Counted from the stretch's first letter, positions 3,499-50,921 are shown. The stretch: 64,000 nt of DNA from Candidatus Babeliales bacterium (GCA_031292305.1 JARLHJ010000045.1:6791-70790); one strand, 5' to 3'. A program made the numbers and translations. The notes: a model not told the origin generated them from the letters alone.

Positions 3499-4656
3499 AT
3501 GATTACATTCATTATTATTATGGCAGTAAGTTTAGTTCTAATTGGGGGAACAATGAAATCTAAAGATAAAAAAATGGATTGCAAAGATGGCGTATGTTCA
3601 ATAGAACAAGTTAATAGTGCGCCTGTAAAAGTTGAAGAAGCAAGTGTTCAAGAGAATTCAGTTATAGAAGTAAACAGTAATAATTTTGAACAAGTTGTTA
3701 TAAATTCTACAAAGCCAGTAATTGTTGATTTTTATGCAACTTGGTGCCCACCATGTAAGGCAATTAAGCCGGTGTATGCGCAACTTGCTCAAGAACAAAC
3801 AGATTGGGTTTTTACTGCATTAGATGTTGACCAAGCTCCGGACATTATGTCCAATTGTGGTGTTAAAGCAATGCCTACTTTTGTAATTTTTAAAAATGGA
3901 ATTCAATTAGGTTCAATAGAAGGTGGCCGACCAAAAGACCAATTGTTCGACGAAATTAAAAAAATTATTGATTTAGGTATACCACAGGTTCCATCAAAAG
4001 AAGCTCTTACTCAAAGCTTGATTATGCAAATCTGTACTAAAAGTATAGAAGGTGTAAAAAAAGCTATAAATGACGGGGCTGATTTAAATGGCACCTGGCA
4101 AACACCATATGGAGATTTCTTTCCTTTAAAATCTGCTATAACTTCTGGTACAGATGAAATTGTAGATTTATTACTTAAGTCTGGTGCAATAATAAATTCT
4201 GACTTAGAGCAAAATATAAATTTAGATATTGAAAAATACAATAAAAGCATAGAAGTATTGAAACAAACTTTACAATATGCAAAAGATAAAATTAAATCTT
4301 TGCCTAATGAAATTAAGCAAGATGTGAAATTAGATGGTCAAGAACTTCGTCAAGAGTTTTTTATTGGAATGTCTGATATTACCAAACTTAAAAGTCTAAT
4401 TGATTCTGGTGCTAACGCTAATCTTCTTTTTGTAGTAGATAAAATAGAAGTTACGCCTTTGTATTTTGCAATAATGTTAAACAATATTCCGGCAATAGAT
4501 TTACTTATAAATGCTGGCGCTTCTTTGCAAGTAGAAGGCAAAAATGCTGCAGGCAATCGCAAATCTATAGAATTATTAGCTGAAGAGTACATGCAACAGT
4601 CTAATAGTGAAATGTTAAATGCTAAAAAACGTTTAGATCGAATTTTAAATAAATAA
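3499..4656 (+). CDS. Membrane-anchored thioredoxin fused to ankyrin-like repeats
   Basis: N-terminal TM; VDFYATWCPPCK; later PLKSAI..IVDLLLKSGA and TPLYFAI..IDLLINAGA ankyrin-like motifs. Confidence 0.8.
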   Translation: MITFIIIMAVSLVLIGGTMKSKDKKMDCKDGVCSIEQVNSAPVKVEEASVQENSVIEVNSNNFEQVVINSTKPVIVDFYATWCPPCKAIKPVYAQLAQEQTDWVFTALDVDQAPDIMSNCGVKAMPTFVIFKNGIQLGSIEGGRPKDQLFDEIKKIIDLGIPQVPSKEALTQSLIMQICTKSIEGVKKAINDGADLNGTWQTPYGDFFPLKSAITSGTDEIVDLLLKSGAIINSDLEQNINLDIEKYNKSIEVLKQTLQYAKDKIKSLPNEIKQDVKLDGQELRQEFFIGMSDITKLKSLIDSGANANLLFVVDKIEVTPLYFAIMLNNIPAIDLLINAGASLQVEGKNAAGNRKSIELLAEEYMQQSNSEMLNAKKRLDRILNK

Positions 4657-45439: not shown

Positions 45440-47188
45440 CTATTTTATTGGATTTAATGTTAATACCTGAGTTTTTTTAACAGGTGTTGATACTATTGGC
45501 TTTTTTACAGGTACTAATGTTAAAACTTGTAGGTTAACGGCAGCCAATTTAGCTTTTGATGCAATAACGTTCGCCTTTATTTTACTTGTAGTATCATTTA
45601 TTTGTTTTATTGCCGCAGGTGTTTTTGCATTACTTAAAGTAATTTTTGCCTCTGCTAATTTAGGAGCAGCAGCTTTAATAACTTGTGCAGTAGTCGATAT
45701 TGCTTGTTTTAATGGAGCAGCCTGTTCTGTGGGTAAATTTGCCAAAGTTTTTGTAGCAGCTGCAATTACATTTTGAGTATTAGTGGTAACGGTTTTAGCG
45801 GCTTCAATATTTGATGCAACTACCGGTGGTGTTGGGGCTAGGCAATTACCCATAGAATCTAAAGTATCACCTGATGCACAACATTGATTAGCACCTTTAA
45901 GTGCAATTTGACCATTAGTACATTGCAGACAAGCATTATCATTTAAAATGAATCCTGTATTACATGCAGAACATGTAGTTCCGTTCTGTGAAGAACAATT
46001 TGCTATTGGCGTAGCATTACAAGCGTTGCCACTTAAAGTATATCCTGTATTACATGTAGAACATGTAGTTCCGTTCTGTGAAGAACAATTTGCTATTGGT
46101 GTAGCAGTACAAGCATTGCCATTTAGTGTATATGCTGTATTGCATGCAGAACATGTAGTTCCATTCTGTGAAGAACAATTTGCAAGTGGTGTAGCAGTAC
46201 AAACATTGCCATTTAAACTATAGCCTGTATTACATGCAGAACATGTAGTTCCATTCTGTGAAAAACAATTTGTTATTGGTTTTGCAGTACAAACATTGCC
46301 AACTAATTGCTGACCTGTTGGACATGTAATCGCCTCGCAATATAAACCATCGTTAGTTGTCTGACCCTTAGGACATGGCTGACATGCAGTCATAGATGTC
46401 GTTGTATCAAAAAATACCGTTTGACCAATAGCTAAACAACTTGTTGGTCTTGCTCGACAACCAAAACCGGCAATTAGCATTTGTCCCGGGGGGCATGTAC
46501 AAGACCCATCATTATTAGCTGGTAGTCCAGTATCTACACATTTACAAGTCATATCAAATGCGGCATCTCCAGTAGACGACTTACTTGCTGTAATTACAGT
46601 GGAACTAGGACATGGAGCTTCGTTACCACATCCGAACCATGGGCTTTGATTGATTTGCTGCCCGTTTATTATCCCTGGAACTGGAACCGATAACGTTAAA
46701 TCATAAGGAGTTCTTGGCACATTTGGAAATCCACCACAAGCACCAGATGAATATGCAGCCAATGATGCTGTTCCTATAAAGCTCCCGTTACTATCATAAA
46801 CTTGGTTTATAATTGGTGCTGGAGTTTGAGTGATTGTACATACATTATTATACGCCTCCAGTGAACAATTTGATATAGTAAAAGTCGTATCTATATTTGG
46901 TACGAGATATCTTTTAATCTTAGTCTCCGTGCCCATTTGCATTTCAATCTGTGTGCCATAATCCAATTGCATTACAGTTGACATATTAGCATTAAGATTT
47001 AGCTTAGTAGGAGGTCCTGTTTGGTTGTATTTAGATATAGTTATATATGGCCCATTAAAAATTGGTCCATTAACAACCTTTAAACTGCCATCTACAATGA
47101 ACGTAACATTAACACTAAAAATCTTGCTACTATTCGATACGAATAAACAAAGCAATAAAAAAACTATATTTCTATTTAAATTTTTCAT
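45440..47188 (-). CDS. Cys-rich repeat surface protein 1 (4 x 30-aa repeats, basic Ala/Lys C-terminal module)
   Basis: Start moved to MKNLNRN (RBS GAAGGA); signal peptide; repeats TPIANCSSQNGTTCSACNTGYTLNGNAC. Confidence 0.85.
   Translation of the reverse strand: MKNLNRNIVFLLLCLFVSNSSKIFSVNVTFIVDGSLKVVNGPIFNGPYITISKYNQTGPPTKLNLNANMSTVMQLDYGTQIEMQMGTETKIKRYLVPNIDTTFTISNCSLEAYNNVCTITQTPAPIINQVYDSNGSFIGTASLAAYSSGACGGFPNVPRTPYDLTLSVPVPGIINGQQINQSPWFGCGNEAPCPSSTVITASKSSTGDAAFDMTCKCVDTGLPANNDGSCTCPPGQMLIAGFGCRARPTSCLAIGQTVFFDTTTSMTACQPCPKGQTTNDGLYCEAITCPTGQQLVGNVCTAKPITNCFSQNGTTCSACNTGYSLNGNVCTATPLANCSSQNGTTCSACNTAYTLNGNACTATPIANCSSQNGTTCSTCNTGYTLSGNACNATPIANCSSQNGTTCSACNTGFILNDNACLQCTNGQIALKGANQCCASGDTLDSMGNCLAPTPPVVASNIEAAKTVTTNTQNVIAAATKTLANLPTEQAAPLKQAISTTAQVIKAAAPKLAEAKITLSNAKTPAAIKQINDTTSKIKANVIASKAKLAAVNLQVLTLVPVKKPIVSTPVKKTQVLTLNPIK
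45926..46285 (-). repeat. Intragenic 90-bp tandem repeat, 4 copies
   Basis: TGTATTACATGCAGAACATGTAGTTCC..GAAGAACAATTTG recurs at 90-bp period. Confidence 0.92.
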
Positions 47189-47263
47189 TAATAATCCTTC
47201 TAATAATTTTTTCATATTCACAAACATCTTTTATTTCGAACCTATCCAATAAATAAGATTAAA

Positions 47264-49018
47264 CTATTTCTTCGGTTTTATTGCTTTAGTTATGGCTACA
47301 GGTTTTAAAACCTTCATAACAGGCTTTACTATTGGCTTTTTTACAGGTATTAATGTTAAAACTTTTAAGTGAACAGCAGCCAATTTAGCTTTTGATGCAA
47401 TAACATTAGCCTTTATTTTACTAGCAGTGTTATTCACTTTCTTTACTGCTGCTGGTGTTTTGGCTTTACTTAAAGCAATTTTTGCCTCTGCTAATTTAGG
47501 TGCAGCAGCTTTAATAACTTGTGTAGTTGTTGATATTGCTTGTTTTAATGGTGCAGCCTGTTCTGCGGGTAAATTTGCTAAAGTTTTTGTAGCAGCTGTA
47601 ATTACTTTTTGAGTATTAGTGGTAACTGTTTTAGCGGATTCAATATTTGATGCAACTACAGGTGGTGTTGGGGCTACGCATTCACCCAGAGAATCTATAG
47701 TATCGCCTGCTGCACAACATTGATTAGCACCTTTAAGTGCAATTTGACCATTAGTACATTCCTCACAACTATTATCATTTAAAATGTATCCCGCGTCACA
47801 TGCTGAACATGTAGTCTTGTTTTGTGTAAAACAATTTAATATTGGTGTAGGGCTACAAACATTGCCACTTAAAGTATATCCTGTGTTACATTCAGAACAA
47901 GTAGTTTCATTCTGTGAAGAACAATTTGGTATTGGTGTAGCAGTACAAACATTTCCACTTAAACTATATCCTGTATTACATGCAGAACATGTAGCACCAA
48001 TCTGTGAAGAACAATTTGATATTGGTATAGCAGTACACGCATTCCCATTTAAACTATATCCTGAATTACATGCAGAACATGTCGTGCCATTCTGATTAGA
48101 ACAATTTGATATTGGTGTAGCAGTACAAACATTGCCACTTAAACTGTATCCTGTATTACATGCAGCACATGTAGTACCATTCTGATTAGAACAATTTAAT
48201 ATTGGTGTAGCAGTACAAACATTGCCACTTAAACTATATCCTGTATTACACGCAGAACATGTAGTACCATTCTGCGAAGAACAATTTTGTATTGGTGTTG
48301 CAGTACACGCATTACCATTTAAACTGTATCCTGTGTTACATGCAGCACACGTAGTACCATTCTGATTAGAACAATTTAATATTGGTGTAGCATTACACGC
48401 ATTGCCATTTAAAGTATATCCTGTATTACATGCAGAACACGTAGTTTCACTCTGTGAAGAACAGTTTGATATTGGTGTAGCAGTACACGCATTGCCACTT
48501 AAACTATATCCTGTGTTACATGCAGAACATGTAGCTCCATTCTGAGAAGAACAATTTGGTATTGGTGTTTGACATGTAGAGCCACTTAATATTTTACCTT
48601 GAGCTGCACAACTTGCGTCTGTTTCTTGGCATTTTAAACCGTCACTAGTTGCTTGCGCGCCTGGGCATGCCTGACACGTTGTACCAACTAATATTTTCCC
48701 ATCGGCTAAGCAACTTGAAGCTGTTGGCGGATAACAACTAATCTTAAGTTGGTTACTATTCCAAACTGGGTATGAAATTTGAATAGCAGTTGGACAAGTT
48801 GCTGATGTTGGCGAACATGGGCCACCGTTATTACTTCCGTTAAAAAACCCATTGGTAGTCTGAATGCTATAAGATTTTCCAGAAGGACAAAATTGAGTAC
48901 TCCCAACTGTTGCTGTTCCGATATTATTTCCATTGATATCATAAACAGGAATTGCGTTTATGTTCGTTAAAACAAAAAAAATACTAAATATTAAAATTAT
49001 TCGATTTTTTATTTTCAC
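47264..49018 (-). CDS. Cys-rich repeat surface protein 2 (9 x 30-aa repeats, same C-terminal module)
   Basis: GTG start with AAGGAG RBS; signal peptide (INA/IP); C-terminus nearly identical to protein 1. Confidence 0.88.
   Translation of the reverse strand: MKIKNRIILIFSIFFVLTNINAIPVYDINGNNIGTATVGSTQFCPSGKSYSIQTTNGFFNGSNNGGPCSPTSATCPTAIQISYPVWNSNQLKISCYPPTASSCLADGKILVGTTCQACPGAQATSDGLKCQETDASCAAQGKILSGSTCQTPIPNCSSQNGATCSACNTGYSLSGNACTATPISNCSSQSETTCSACNTGYTLNGNACNATPILNCSNQNGTTCAACNTGYSLNGNACTATPIQNCSSQNGTTCSACNTGYSLSGNVCTATPILNCSNQNGTTCAACNTGYSLSGNVCTATPISNCSNQNGTTCSACNSGYSLNGNACTAIPISNCSSQIGATCSACNTGYSLSGNVCTATPIPNCSSQNETTCSECNTGYTLSGNVCSPTPILNCFTQNKTTCSACDAGYILNDNSCEECTNGQIALKGANQCCAAGDTIDSLGECVAPTPPVVASNIESAKTVTTNTQKVITAATKTLANLPAEQAAPLKQAISTTTQVIKAAAPKLAEAKIALSKAKTPAAVKKVNNTASKIKANVIASKAKLAAVHLKVLTLIPVKKPIVKPVMKVLKPVAITKAIKPKK
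47762..48571 (-). repeat. Intragenic 90-bp tandem repeat, 9 copies
   Basis: Same unit as 45926-46285 (ATTGGTGTAGCAGTAC..TATCCTGTATTACATGCAG..). Confidence 0.92.
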
Positions 49019-49338
49019 TTTTTCTCCTTAAAATCATAAATATTACATATAAGCATAAAAACCCATTAAGTTAATTTTATTAATATTGACCCTTTTTGGG
49101 ATATATTATTTCTAATTGTAATATATGACATTGTTAAATTGCTAGAATTTAGTGATTTTTCTAATTTTTATTCTGTAAAGTCAGCAATGTAACCTAGCAA
49201 TAATTGGGAAAAATTTTGAAAATATGGATAAAATTGCCCATTTTTAAGCATATAAATCTAATTATAGTTTTTAAAGAGTTGAATTTGTTACAATAATTAA
49301 AATAGATAGTTGTTCAATTTTTCATAAAAGAGGTTCTA

Positions 49339-49647
49339 ATGCAGTTTTCTAAATATATATTATTAATATTACTGCAGATATCATATATAGGTTTTGAATT
49401 AGCAGATGATGCTCCTAAAAAGGGTGGCACACTAGGCCTTAGTATTAAAGGTGGCGTAATAACAATTGCGGGCAGTAGTTCGCCTGTATCGCCAACTGAC
49501 AATGTACAAGCATTAGCTACCATACCTGAACCACCGTCAACAGCACCGGCAGCAGACCAATCAGCTGCACCTGCAGCAGATCAACCTGCGACTGAATCTT
49601 CACCTGATCAAAGTTTATCCACAGATCAACCCGTACCTGCTGAATAA
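49339..49647 (+). CDS. Small secreted Pro/Ala/Ser-rich protein
   Basis: Hydrophobic N-terminus; APAADQ repeated; RBS GAGG. Confidence 0.65.
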   Translation: MQFSKYILLILLQISYIGFELADDAPKKGGTLGLSIKGGVITIAGSSSPVSPTDNVQALATIPEPPSTAPAADQSAAPAADQPATESSPDQSLSTDQPVPAE

Positions 49648-49649
49648 TT

Positions 49650-50921
49650 ATGAATAAAAAAAATATAAAAGTCGCAATAATAGGTGGAGGAGCTTCTGGG
49701 CTCAGCACTGCGTGGTTATTAGAAAAAGATTATGACGTTACACTATTTGAAGAACGTGATGTTCTAGGCGGTCATGCAAGAACTCAGCAAATACAAATCG
49801 GGGATAAATTAATACCCATAGATACAGGGTTTGAATTTTTCTCACCGAGAATGTTTGTACATTTTGATGCATTATTAAAATATTTAAAAGTGCCACTGGC
49901 TGAGCATCCACTTACTTATACATTTCACCGCTTAGATAAAGAAGATGTTTTAAGCTTACCGCCATTTCATAATGGTATGGTATATTGGAAATCTCTAACA
50001 CCCAAAAATATTAGCAGGATGTTACAGTTTTTATATTTCATAAATAGAGGCAAACAAGTTATAGAAAGTGAAAACTTAGATATTACCCTAGAGCAATTTG
50101 CAGATAGCTTATATTTAACAAAAAGCTTTAAAAACGAATTTTTATACCCACTTTTAGTAGCAGGCTGGGGACAGAATATTAATGATTTTAAAAAATCTTC
50201 AGCTTATGATATTTTGTATTGGTCTGTTAAAAATAATTTTAGCGCGTTTAAATCTTTGCAATGGACAGAGGTTGTGGGTGGTGTAAAAGTTTATATTGAT
50301 GCACTCGCTGCACAACTGACAGAGACTAAAATTAATTTATCTAGCAAAGTAATTAGCTTAAAGCCCATAGAAAACCAATACGAGTTAATATTGCAAAATG
50401 GTGAAAAACAAATATTTGATTATATTATATTTTCTACATCAGCAGGCATAACAGCAGATATTTTGCAAGATGTTGCAAGCTCGCAATATATCAGATCAAA
50501 GTTAAGTGAAATAGAATATTTTAAAACCACAATTGCAGTGCATTCTGATACTTCTTTAATGCCTAAAGATAAAGCTTACTGGTCTATGGCAAATGTAAGA
50601 TATGATGGCGTACATAGTCAACTTACAATTTACAAAGAGTGGAAAAGCCCAGAAGTGCCAATATTTAGAAGTTGGGTTACTTATGACAAAAATTTACCTA
50701 AGAATTTGTATGCAATTGAAGAATATTTGCATGGCAAAATAAGCCCAAAAACTTTTACATTAAAAGCAGATATAGAAAAAGTCCAAGGCAATAATAATAT
50801 TTGGTATGCTGGCGTTCACACTTGCGGTGTTGATTCGCATGACACTGCAATACTTTCTGCTATTAAAATTGCCCAAAAATTAGCACCAGATTCTGAAAGA
50901 CTTAAAGTTTTTAATCTTTAA
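49650..50921 (+). CDS. FAD-dependent oxidoreductase (amine-oxidase-like, predicted NAD/FAD-binding family)
   Basis: VAIIGGGASGL, LGGHART, IDTGF, QG.NNIWYAG..H. Confidence 0.88.
   Translation: MNKKNIKVAIIGGGASGLSTAWLLEKDYDVTLFEERDVLGGHARTQQIQIGDKLIPIDTGFEFFSPRMFVHFDALLKYLKVPLAEHPLTYTFHRLDKEDVLSLPPFHNGMVYWKSLTPKNISRMLQFLYFINRGKQVIESENLDITLEQFADSLYLTKSFKNEFLYPLLVAGWGQNINDFKKSSAYDILYWSVKNNFSAFKSLQWTEVVGGVKVYIDALAAQLTETKINLSSKVISLKPIENQYELILQNGEKQIFDYIIFSTSAGITADILQDVASSQYIRSKLSEIEYFKTTIAVHSDTSLMPKDKAYWSMANVRYDGVHSQLTIYKEWKSPEVPIFRSWVTYDKNLPKNLYAIEEYLHGKISPKTFTLKADIEKVQGNNNIWYAGVHTCGVDSHDTAILSAIKIAQKLAPDSERLKVFNL

Follow-up and report, generated by a model that had tools for sequence, protein, structure and literature searches.

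Tandem Babeliales genes for two putatively exported proteins with protist-type cysteine repeats and a shared cationic tail

The analyzed stretch of 64,000 nucleotides from a Candidatus Babeliales bacterium (GCA_031292305.1, JARLHJ010000045.1:6791-70790; the window in the following) contains two adjacent genes, A and B, which are located on the minus strand as open reading frames exactly at 45440..49018, where the first-pass annotation had placed them. Both genes encode the same series of modules:

45440-47188, minus strand: gene A, start M14, 582 aa (signal peptide, long head, stalk of 4 units, cap, tail)
45440-47227, minus strand: full open reading frame of gene A, 595 aa
46271-47113, minus strand: A head, aa 39-319 (595-aa numbering), orphan
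45911-46270, minus strand: A stalk, 4 units of 30 aa, aa 320-439
45836-45910, minus strand: A Cys cap, aa 440-464, where synonymous divergence from B is lowest
45443-45835, minus strand: A tail, aa 465-595, predicted three-helix bundle with basic end, net charge +13
47264-49018, minus strand: gene B, 584 aa, GTG start (signal peptide, short head, stalk of 9 units, cap, tail)
48953-49018, minus strand: B signal peptide, aa 1-22, MKIKNRIILIFSIFFVLTNINA, judged by eye
48557-48952, minus strand: B head, aa 23-154, VYDxNGxxIGTA motif and irregular Cys modules
47747-48556, minus strand: B stalk, 9 units of 30 aa, aa 155-424, consensus NCSSQNGTTCSACNTGYSLSGNxCTATPIx
47672-47746, minus strand: B Cys cap, aa 425-449, ...CTNGQIALKGANQCCAAGDTIDSLGEC
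47267-47671, minus strand: B tail, aa 450-584, PTPPVV linker, three long helices (predicted), Lys/Pro/Val-rich end, net charge +22

An AAGGA motif at 47195-47199 is located 6 nt upstream of M14 (47188) and the public record of gene A's own product (P0003) has 582 aa, therefore M14 is the likelier start of A. Gene B is preceded by the Shine-Dalgarno sequence AAGGAG at 49024-49029, 5 nt before the GTG. The signal peptides of both proteins were called by inspection of the translations, and the one of B has, judged in this way, a basic n-region, a hydrophobic core and the residues INA ahead of the likely cleavage site. GC3 is 0.17 in A and 0.15 in B compared to 0.165 +/- 0.028 in the genome, the codon score deviates by at most 1.1 sd, and codon usage shows no sign of recent gene transfer. 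Comparing A with B revealed a dN/dS of 0.41 for the repeats and of 0.24 for the tail at a dS of about 0.3, and both parts are under purifying selection. The host contig (75.8 kb) also encodes SecA, FtsA and FtsZ, and the flanks of the pair are bacterial genes. Because of the Shine-Dalgarno sites, the genome-typical codons, this contig and the purifying selection, A and B appear to be real, expressed-looking bacterial genes. Promoter-like sites were fewer than in shuffled sequences, and a terminator scan remained at chance level.

The genome assembly comprises 1.5 Mb with 30% GC and is 92% complete at an estimated contamination of 4.6%. Its FtsZ has its nearest named records in TM6/Babeliales/Dependentiae; SecA is about 50% identical to proteins of many phyla among the species-representative genomes and is thus uninformative for taxonomy. 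Two of 20 relatives have the flanking RPE65-like gene and one of 20 the amine oxidase gene, with 38-44% identity, a synteny too sparse to demonstrate an insertion at this locus.

The N-terminal regions of the two proteins had been described as divergent. They are indeed largely different, yet related: an alignment of the B head with aa 141-320 of A gave 48 identical residues at 129 positions (37%). The A head additionally has about 105-120 N-terminal residues without counterpart in B and several insertions. It belongs to no Pfam family, its AlphaFold2 model within the whole protein (aa 1-286) is unusable with a pLDDT below 35, and an Atlas search with the head gave no usable feature match and structural rows with TM of at most 0.37.

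The stalks consist of 30-aa units with the pattern C-x7-C-x2-C-x10-C, which occurs four times in A and nine times in B. Tandem Repeats Finder detected the corresponding 90-bp period with 4.2 copies at 45925-46301 and 8.6 copies at 47798-48568, which confirms the copy numbers given by the first-pass annotation. Each of the 13 units contains one CxxC motif, and the total number of cysteines is 37 in A and 50 in B. A genome-wide count, as suggested earlier for this family, was done with a repeat HMM and yielded two genes, A and B, above noise among 5890 open reading frames (next best match E 0.0015). AlphaFold2 predicts two beta-hairpins per unit for the B stalk (pLDDT 72) and reaches a pLDDT of about 80-85 for the A stalk. 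An Atlas search with the repeats gave scores of up to 0.82, to be taken as leads only, and a sequence search of solved structures (B alone; profile) retrieved nothing relevant. Two or more N-x-S/T sequons are present in 9 of the 13 units, in agreement with the earlier remark on most repeats. The sequon totals match composition, with 16 in A against 11.0 +/- 3.0 in shuffles (16 reached by 148 of 2000) and 17 in B against 13.2 +/- 3.1 (17 reached by 275 of 2000), and no STT3/PglB-type transferase (PF02516) was found in the 92% complete genome. Thus, neither the sequon enrichment nor the oligosaccharyltransferase that characterize N-glycoproteins was detected for A and B, and the sequons are a weak hint at N-glycosylation.

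The C-terminal region following the cap had been called nearly identical at the DNA level, which is an overstatement: the tails of about 135 aa are 79% identical in protein, and successive 90-nt windows of DNA are 91, 94, 93, 82 and 70% identical. According to the prediction, the tail is a three-helix bundle rich in Lys/Ala that ends in a basic stretch and lacks a hydrophobic span (helices at 457-483, 487-520 and 524-558 in P0003 numbering, pLDDT about 80). Outside the tail the charge is -2 in A and -5 in B. Within the genome, this tail occurs in three open reading frames: besides A and B, contig C36 encodes a 364-aa protein in which it is joined to an unrelated head. Among 1.84 billion representatives, a tail search found two matches only, P0003 and P0017; the latter has other Cys repeats joined to the same cap, linker and tail, with conservation of the part CCxxGDT[LI]DxxGxC-APTPPVV. 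No real match was obtained in 60 related genomes. A complex prediction for the A and B tails returned "no answer" with a score of 0.00, which is evidence neither way. Furthermore, neither protein passed the cut-off of any Pfam family (hmmscan) or matched NCBIfam, and no beta-barrel, transmembrane segment or lipobox was found in translations, Pfam results and AlphaFold2 models.

The first-pass annotation had also allowed for the duplication being an assembly artefact. For this point we compared the locus with contigs of four public runs from one study, probably the source samples, at a depth of about 3-8x. Every compared piece matches at >= 99%, and the A/B junction is bridged by two per-run contigs (X4, 47023-47556; X1, 47047-47355), which argues against such an artefact. 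In all four runs, one bin within array B has roughly double the depth of the neighboring bins. The low-depth contigs, none of which spans a whole array, contain no joints or indels indicative of repeat-number variants. Two of the four runs have one contig each that departs from the reference exactly at codon 412 of B (47785) and, once more, at a point 335 nt upstream of this gene (49353), with about 255 other bases in between; 30-mers from the loose ends are absent from the assembly. A swap of a head-plus-stalk cassette is a possible explanation for these contigs. Internal units are 78-92% identical within and between genes, and the terminal units of A and B (A4 and B9) share 81% identity with each other and only 60-74% with other units. 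Recombination between repeats would fit these identities and the possible variant contigs, and we assume that unequal recombination among 90-bp units with 78-92% identity probably alters the length of the stalk.

The repeat itself is narrowly distributed. It was found in none of the 60 related genomes and had no match on contigs of species-representative genomes; viral contigs scanned with the repeat alignment and with P0004 gave none either. Alignment A3 was too diverse for locus scans, for which repeat alignment A4 served as query. In the protein database 14 matches were obtained at E <= 1e-3, one of them gene A's own product. The closest of the 13 others is P0004, an unplaced metagenome protein with 57% identity, followed among the scored relatives by L094 on a ciliate-code contig, P0005 (PF03302 match below threshold) and P0006 from Tetrahymena, which passes PF03302 with 106 bits (gathering score 31.4 bits). 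Of 207 pattern matches in a metagenome scan, 28 were confirmed; they fall into 26 loci with 25-39% identity, six of which have a longest frame that becomes at least twice as long when read in the ciliate code. L094 becomes an unbroken Cys-repeat protein once seven TAA/TAG codons are read as Q, and L095 is eukaryote-like with large Cys-repeat open reading frames ending in a hydrophobic, transmembrane-like segment. Three of ten open reading frames tested from the metagenome loci pass the Pfam VSP cut-off, two of L105 (57.9 and 60.8 bits) and one of L097 (56.8 bits).

In local comparisons P0004 scored 378 bits and three eukaryote-type targets 122, 82 and 76 bits. In 60 shuffles with fixed cysteines the three eukaryote-type targets dropped to 0 bits throughout, and P0004 to a mean of 9.4 with a maximum of 42.7. 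As the scores collapse in these shuffles, the likeness exceeds mere cysteine spacing. Bacterial CPxGYxLxGxxC hairpin-repeat proteins are weak but real matches (P0007, P0013 and P0010, 44-49 bits); PF06986 is carried by the distant matches P0007-P0009 and P0012, and thus by P0007 only among the three. Because of these scores, a bacterial source of the hairpin is possible. Taken together, L094, P0005 and P0006 and the lack of the repeat in the 60 related genomes and the representative contigs bear out its assignment to the protist surface-antigen type.

With respect to lifestyle, every known member of the Dependentiae/Babeliales is described as infecting phagotrophic protists, including one ciliate host (PMC12172432). 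The genome encodes five secretins and further exported Cys-rich repeat proteins at C36:32225-32785, C15:1466-2914, C19:9318-12422 and 60469-61260 of the window. Searches of the genome (92% complete) for DsbA, DsbB and VKOR were negative; it does encode DsbD-like proteins and exported thioredoxins with CPPC. LpxC was not found in the genome either, and binding of the tail to LPS can therefore not be assumed.

Our preferred reading, to which we assign a probability of about one half, is that A and B are tandem paralogues, exported by the Sec pathway, disulfide-rich and rod-like, which present protist-type repeats on a portable cationic tail and act in host contact. Behind the cleavable signal peptide, a fast-diverging orphan head would be carried by the stalk of four-Cys units, each folded into two predicted beta-hairpins of the ciliate/Giardia VSP-like type, followed by the Cys cap with its PTPPVV linker and the cationic tail. 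The tail may serve as a tethering module that holds different heads on an anionic surface, either the cell's own envelope or, alternatively, the host membrane. The stalk would set the reach of the head, with the N-terminus assumed to be the tip. At the contact site with the protist host, the proteins might function in attachment and uptake, or imitate host surface proteins.

A different arrangement, which we consider unlikely, is a structural coat: A, B and other secreted Cys-rich proteins would form a disulfide-cross-linked outer layer that hardens the extracellular infectious stage, in the manner of the chlamydial cysteine-rich outer membrane complex, with the tail as the exposed host-binding end, comparable to the basic motif of OmcB, and hence an orientation opposite to that of the first-pass annotation. 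The several additional exported Cys-rich repeat proteins and the strongly cationic tail are in line with this, as the apparent lack of a classical Dsb oxidation system would be with late oxidation outside the host, and a conserved, phylum-wide parasitism is described for two phyla, Ca. Babelota and Chlamydiota (PMC12172432). But A and B match neither chlamydial Cys-rich proteins nor any Pfam family above cut-off, a regular hairpin-ladder stalk of 4 versus 9 units resembles a spacer more than a lattice, and related genomes should encode such a coat protein as well, yet repeat and tail were found in 0 of 60.

It also seems improbable that A and B are soluble effectors, released, for example, by a type II system or in vesicles, which imitate VSP-like proteins of the host and serve as decoys or ligand mimics, either in the host vacuole or on receptors of the host surface, with the tail binding host membranes or polyanions. 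The eukaryote-type repeat, the five secretins and the lack of a detected membrane anchor would fit, and in Chromulinavorax signal peptides are described for 44% of the coding sequences, with secreted ORFans as proposed effectors (PMC6561590). One conserved tail on three heads and in P0017, however, is easier to reconcile with a shared docking site than with three separate host targets. That misbinned or misjoined DNA of the eukaryotic host, or a collapsed or duplicated assembly of one gene, explains the pair is very improbable despite the eukaryotic relatives, a GC content of up to 35-36% over both genes, the doubled depth in one bin of array B and the estimated contamination, as A and B lie between bacterial genes on the contig of SecA, FtsA and FtsZ, carry Shine-Dalgarno sites and genome-like GC3 and codons, differ in their heads and at a dS of about 0.3, share their tail with contig C36 and are joined in per-run contigs.

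Returning to the reading as host-contact proteins, a more far-reaching version is conceivable, which we regard as quite doubtful. A Babeliales parasite could have captured a VSP-type stalk from a protist, perhaps a ciliate, and welded it to a private tail, which presents one or more unrelated heads as well. In this case, the two adjacent genes would act as a small variation system for tuning host range or evading recognition, with stalk length shifting via unequal recombination of the 90-bp units and head-plus-stalk cassettes being swapped or lost. In Giardia, VSP switching serves the evasion of host recognition.

Obligate parasites of protists make up the widespread phylum Dependentiae/Babelota, whose host-interaction molecules are almost undescribed, and in the limited literature collection searched we found no earlier description of such Cys-repeat proteins from this group. 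If A and B mediate host contact, they would be a concrete candidate for a factor of attachment or mimicry and would exemplify a repeat of eukaryotic surface antigens that works in a bacterium without a eukaryotic membrane anchor, and the cap, PTPPVV linker and cationic three-helix tail would constitute a new, very narrowly distributed display module. The apparent lack of DsbA and DsbB next to many exported Cys-rich proteins furthermore raises the question by which route secreted proteins are oxidized.

Among known systems, the best relatives with a family assignment belong to the Giardia/ciliate VSP-like group of furin-like Cys-rich proteins (PF03302; related PF15913 and PF14843). They share with A and B a signal peptide, rod-like extracellular stalks with tandem repeats (about 30 aa each, hairpin C-x2-C-x2-G-[YF]-x-L-x4-C) and an organization in paralogue families with variable ends. 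Giardia VSPs contain frequent CXXC motifs in an extracellular Cys-rich region, followed by a C-terminal transmembrane helix and a short conserved cytoplasmic tail. CxxC motifs are likewise frequent in A and B, whereas the transmembrane helix is absent. In contrast to the VSP-like proteins, A and B are encoded by a bacterium, their units have four cysteines with the first CxxC cut to one Cys, and a cationic helical tail replaces the C-terminal transmembrane segment or GPI signal seen in L095 and L098. In hmmscan neither PF03302 nor the furin-like/growth-factor-receptor repeats (PF00757, PF15913, PF14843) gave a row for A or B even at E <= 1, and the cut-off of cEGF (PF12662, 26.6 bits) was not reached (B 17.5 bits, E 0.0038; A no row).

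The bacterial CPxGYxLxGxxC proteins, some of them TraN-like, have the second hairpin motif GY-x-L-x-G-x-x-C in common with A and B; in contrast, their units measure about 20 aa, with two cysteines each and without CxxC, and at 44-49 bits they score well below the ciliate-type relatives (76-122 bits). TraN-like PF06986 itself gave no row for A or B. Autotransporter or type V adhesins differ as well, since no Pfam barrel domain was detected and the C-terminus is modelled as three helices; a three-helix bundle is found in Fap1-NR-alpha of Streptococcus parasanguinis (3rgu_A), which is among the closest known systems. The chlamydial OmcB, part of the Cys-rich outer membrane complex of an obligate intracellular bacterium, has a basic host-binding motif that could parallel the cationic tail, and both OmcB and OmcA are Cys-rich and exported like A and B. 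The parallel is a functional analogy only, as A and B are regular repeat arrays without sequence or family match to these proteins.

For Babela, a family of seven secreted proteins with a Cys-rich N-terminal domain and a beta-barrel is described (PMC4378268). This family and the eukaryote-like repeat proteins of protist-associated bacteria are, like A and B, exported, lineage-specific and expanded, with a proposed role in host adaptation. The Babela proteins differ in repeat type and architecture from A and B, which have no beta-barrel. A and B belong among the eukaryote-like repeat proteins of protist symbionts, an already known kind.

The Cys-repeat genes are two adjacent minus-strand open reading frames that fill positions 45440 to 49018 exactly, as the first-pass annotation had placed them:

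47264-49018, minus strand: gene B, open reading frame of 584 aa with a GTG start
45440-47227, minus strand: gene A, open reading frame adjoining B

The GTG codon of B is preceded by AAGGAG at a distance of 5 nt, and the most likely start of A, judged from the sequence, is M14 (47188) with AAGGA 6 nt upstream; read from there, A encodes a 582-aa protein identical to the public record P0003. The sequence TAGTTTAAT follows the stop codons of both genes, so the duplication took in the 3' flank. By eye, the N-terminus of each protein resembles a Sec signal peptide (basic start, hydrophobic core, small-residue end). Both genes lie on contig C33 (75.8 kb) of a bacterial assembly totalling 1.53 Mb in 47 contigs (GC ~30%, 92% complete, estimated contamination 4.6%). 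C33 also carries the genes for SecA, FtsA and FtsZ and other bacterial genes. The named nearest relatives of this FtsZ are candidate division TM6, Candidatus Babeliales and Candidatus Dependentiae (61-66% identity), with one row among them carrying an archaeal label; closer matches reach 88%. Codon choice and GC3 of A and B are typical of the genome, so the amino-acid composition of their products accounts for the local rise in GC, and nothing points to recent import.

By Tandem Repeats Finder, the period is 90 bp and the copy number 4.2 for A and 8.6 for B; the pattern C-x7-C-x2-C-x10-C matches four times in A and nine times in B in perfect 30-residue register, which confirms the earlier count of 4 versus 9 copies of a four-Cys unit. 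The unit has the consensus NCSSQNGTTCSACNTGYSLSGNxCTATPIx, and an HMM built from 13 units matched A and B alone among 5890 ORFs of the genome (next best E 0.0015). The DNA identity of internal units is 78-92%; comparisons across the two genes (80-89%) reach the same level as those inside one gene. The last units, A4 and B9, match each other at 81% but all other units at only 60-74%. Such interchangeable internal and positionally fixed edge units would be the product of unequal crossing-over in the array. Sequons are not enriched over what the composition would give, and an STT3-type transferase was not found in the 92% complete assembly. The 37 cysteines of A and 50 of B are presumably disulfide-bonded, given the apparent export and the eukaryotic relatives of the proteins. 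AlphaFold2 (7-row alignment) arranged the four A units and the following cap as a ladder of beta-hairpins (pLDDT about 80-85), and for B residues 306-452 a single-sequence prediction gave two hairpins per unit (pLDDT 72).

Pfam returned no meaningful match above cut-off for A or B; PF03302 (VSP) was absent even at E <= 1, and NCBIfam gave no match. The BRINP score of B (28.7 bits) is built from five short Cys stretches, and all rows for IBR, cEGF and zinc-ribbon families lie below cut-off. A search of 5.8 billion clustered proteins with B yielded 14 matches at E <= 1e-3, one of them the product of A. The closest repeat relative, the metagenomic P0004, is 57% identical with nine units in register with the nine of B, its other half being unrelated. 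Two further matches, P0005 and P0006 from Tetrahymena utriculariae, carry PF03302; of the remainder, four are annotated as TraN-like, two as cEGF and four have no annotation. Of 207 pattern matches in a metagenome scan, 28 were confirmed; they fall into 26 loci (25-39% identity), and in six of these the ciliate code at least doubles the longest frame. The best locus (L094) encodes an unbroken 439-aa Cys-repeat protein with seven TAA/TAG codons read as Q, and three of ten ORFs tested from four loci passed the Pfam VSP cut-off, with one just under it. In 60 control sequences, in which the cysteines of the B array were fixed and all other residues shuffled, the scores of L094 (122 bits), P0005 (82 bits) and P0006 (76 bits) fell to 0 in 60/60 and that of P0004 from 378 bits to a mean of 9. 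Because the scores collapse in these shuffles, the likeness goes beyond Cys spacing and composition; bacterial hairpin-repeat proteins scored lower (44-49 bits). Searches of 60 related genomes, 53-99% complete (7 from the same family and 53 from the same order), of contigs of species-representative genomes and of viral contigs did not recover the repeat. Thus, the proposal that the repeat is protist-antigen-like and rare in bacteria is supported. On the simplest reading of this distribution, which falls short of a demonstration, the repeat would have been acquired from a eukaryote.

The array is followed by a Cys cap (CTNGQIALKGANQCCxxGDTxDSxGxC), a PTPPVV linker and a tail of about 135 aa. 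The N-terminal regions had been described as largely different; the heads are weakly related (48/129 aligned positions identical) and that of A has about 105-120 additional N-terminal residues, but a VYDxNGxxIGTA motif and some irregular Cys modules are common to both. The AlphaFold2 model of the A head was unusable (pLDDT <35). The C-terminal regions are indeed shared, but "near-identical" is too strong, as the tails have 79% protein identity and DNA identity in five successive 90-nt windows of the 3' region is 91, 94, 93, 82 and 70%. With a dS of 0.34 and dN/dS of 0.41 for the repeat alignment and a dS of 0.27 and dN/dS of 0.24 for the tails, both parts are under purifying selection. Around codons 445-495 pS falls to 0.05-0.10. 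With so few synonymous sites per window, this hints only weakly at a conversion patch of more recent date.

The tail of A was modelled by AlphaFold2 as three long helices (457-483, 487-520 and 524-558; pLDDT about 80). A tail HMM recovered three ORFs in the genome, namely A, B and an exported protein with an entirely different head, no Cys stalk and an (A/K)-rich run at the C-terminus:

Contig C36, 31123-32217 (820-1914 of stretch L003): third tail-bearing gene, 364 aa, signal peptide, non-Cys head, (A/K)-rich end

Upstream of it lies a paralogous head gene and downstream a gene for an exported CACPxGQxLVNGVC-repeat protein, cut by the contig end. Among 1.84 billion representative proteins, the three-tail profile matched P0003 and P0017 (E 2e-9) and none other; P0017 has a signal peptide, another head and different Cys repeats, followed by the same CCxxGDTLDxxGxC-APTPPVV cap, linker and tail. 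In the 60 related genomes nothing real was found, the single match (E 0.007) covering 36 positions with four stops. The tails of A, B and the C36 protein have net charges of +13, +22 and +12, the remainder of each protein -2, -5 and -1. The tail is narrowly distributed, conserved and cationic, and follows heads of at least three kinds; the best explanation is that it would serve as a shared docking or tethering device.

According to the account in PMC12172432, the hosts of all known members of the phylum are phagotrophic protists (among them amoebae, a chrysophyte and the ciliate Loxodes), and signal peptides are given for 44% of the coding sequences of Chromulinavorax (PMC6561590). The genome contains five secretin genes, four within about 9 kb (C21, 17524-26800) and the fifth on C34, which is unusually many for 1.5 Mb. 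DsbA, DsbB, VKOR and LpxC were not found in the 92% complete assembly; it does encode exported CPPC thioredoxins and DsbD-like proteins. One thioredoxin is an unusual fusion:

3499-4656, plus strand: 385 aa, N-terminal hydrophobic anchor, CPPC thioredoxin domain, C-terminal part ankyrin-like by eye

Despite no detected DsbA, DsbB or VKOR, the genome encodes a sizeable set of secreted Cys-rich proteins, including these further exported proteins, which have other motifs and are either small and Cys-rich or built of Cys-rich repeats:

Contig C15, 1466-2914
Contig C19, 9318-12422
Contig C21, 33842-34809
Contig C28, 17159-17569
Contig C35, 20492-21064

Other features of the window are:

43332-44918, plus strand: RPE65-type carotenoid oxygenase, flanking A/B, found in 2 of 20 related genomes
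49339-49647, plus strand: small ORF of 102 aa, divergent from B, signal-peptide-like start, acidic Pro/Ala/Ser/Asp-rich remainder
49650-50921, plus strand: flavin amine oxidase, flanking A/B, found in 1 of 20 related genomes
60469-61260, minus strand: exported Cys-rich protein of 263 aa

As the flanking genes are patchy among relatives, A and B lie in a variable, accessory stretch. The small ORF has no Pfam match and stops 3 nt before the amine-oxidase gene. The 263-aa protein contains QVLTLVP in its mature N-terminus, a heptapeptide that recurs close to the C-terminal end of A; back-translated, the pattern has these two sites in the window, none elsewhere there and none in 100 shuffles. It also shows weak similarity (E 0.001) to the Cys modules preceding the repeats of A.

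Four public runs from one bioreactor study contain 70-80% of sampled words, but the assembly probably derives from them, so their support is not independent. Every matched piece of the low-depth run contigs has at least 99% identity, with no joints or indels reported; two run contigs bridge the A/B junction and none spans an array. In two of the four runs (X2 and X4), one contig stops following the reference at two points, 47785 (codon 412 of B, first base) and 49353 (335 nt upstream of B), with 255 unmatched letters at each end, whose 30-nt ends are absent from the assembly. It may be an allele that has other sequence in place of the B head and most of the B stalk, or an assembly chimera. Inside array B, all four runs show roughly double the summed contig depth of the adjacent bins at 48080-48243, possibly owing to extra or collapsed units or to overlapping contigs. 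Both signals could stem from a variant allele or from additional units, but equally from the assembly graph.

The adhesin or mimicry function, the assignment of tip and base, and shuffling by recombination remain proposals. No prior description of these proteins was found within the limited literature coverage searched. Eukaryote-like repeat proteins of protist-associated bacteria are a known kind; new here are a VSP-type stalk in a Dependentiae bacterium and a private tail, cationic and three-helical, that recurs on different heads. The eukaryote-like metagenome locus L095 encodes large Cys-repeat proteins with a C-terminal hydrophobic, transmembrane-like segment, and the protein of locus L098 has a signal peptide, 30-aa four-Cys units spaced as in A and B and a hydrophobic C-terminus resembling a GPI signal, whereas A and B end in the cationic tail.
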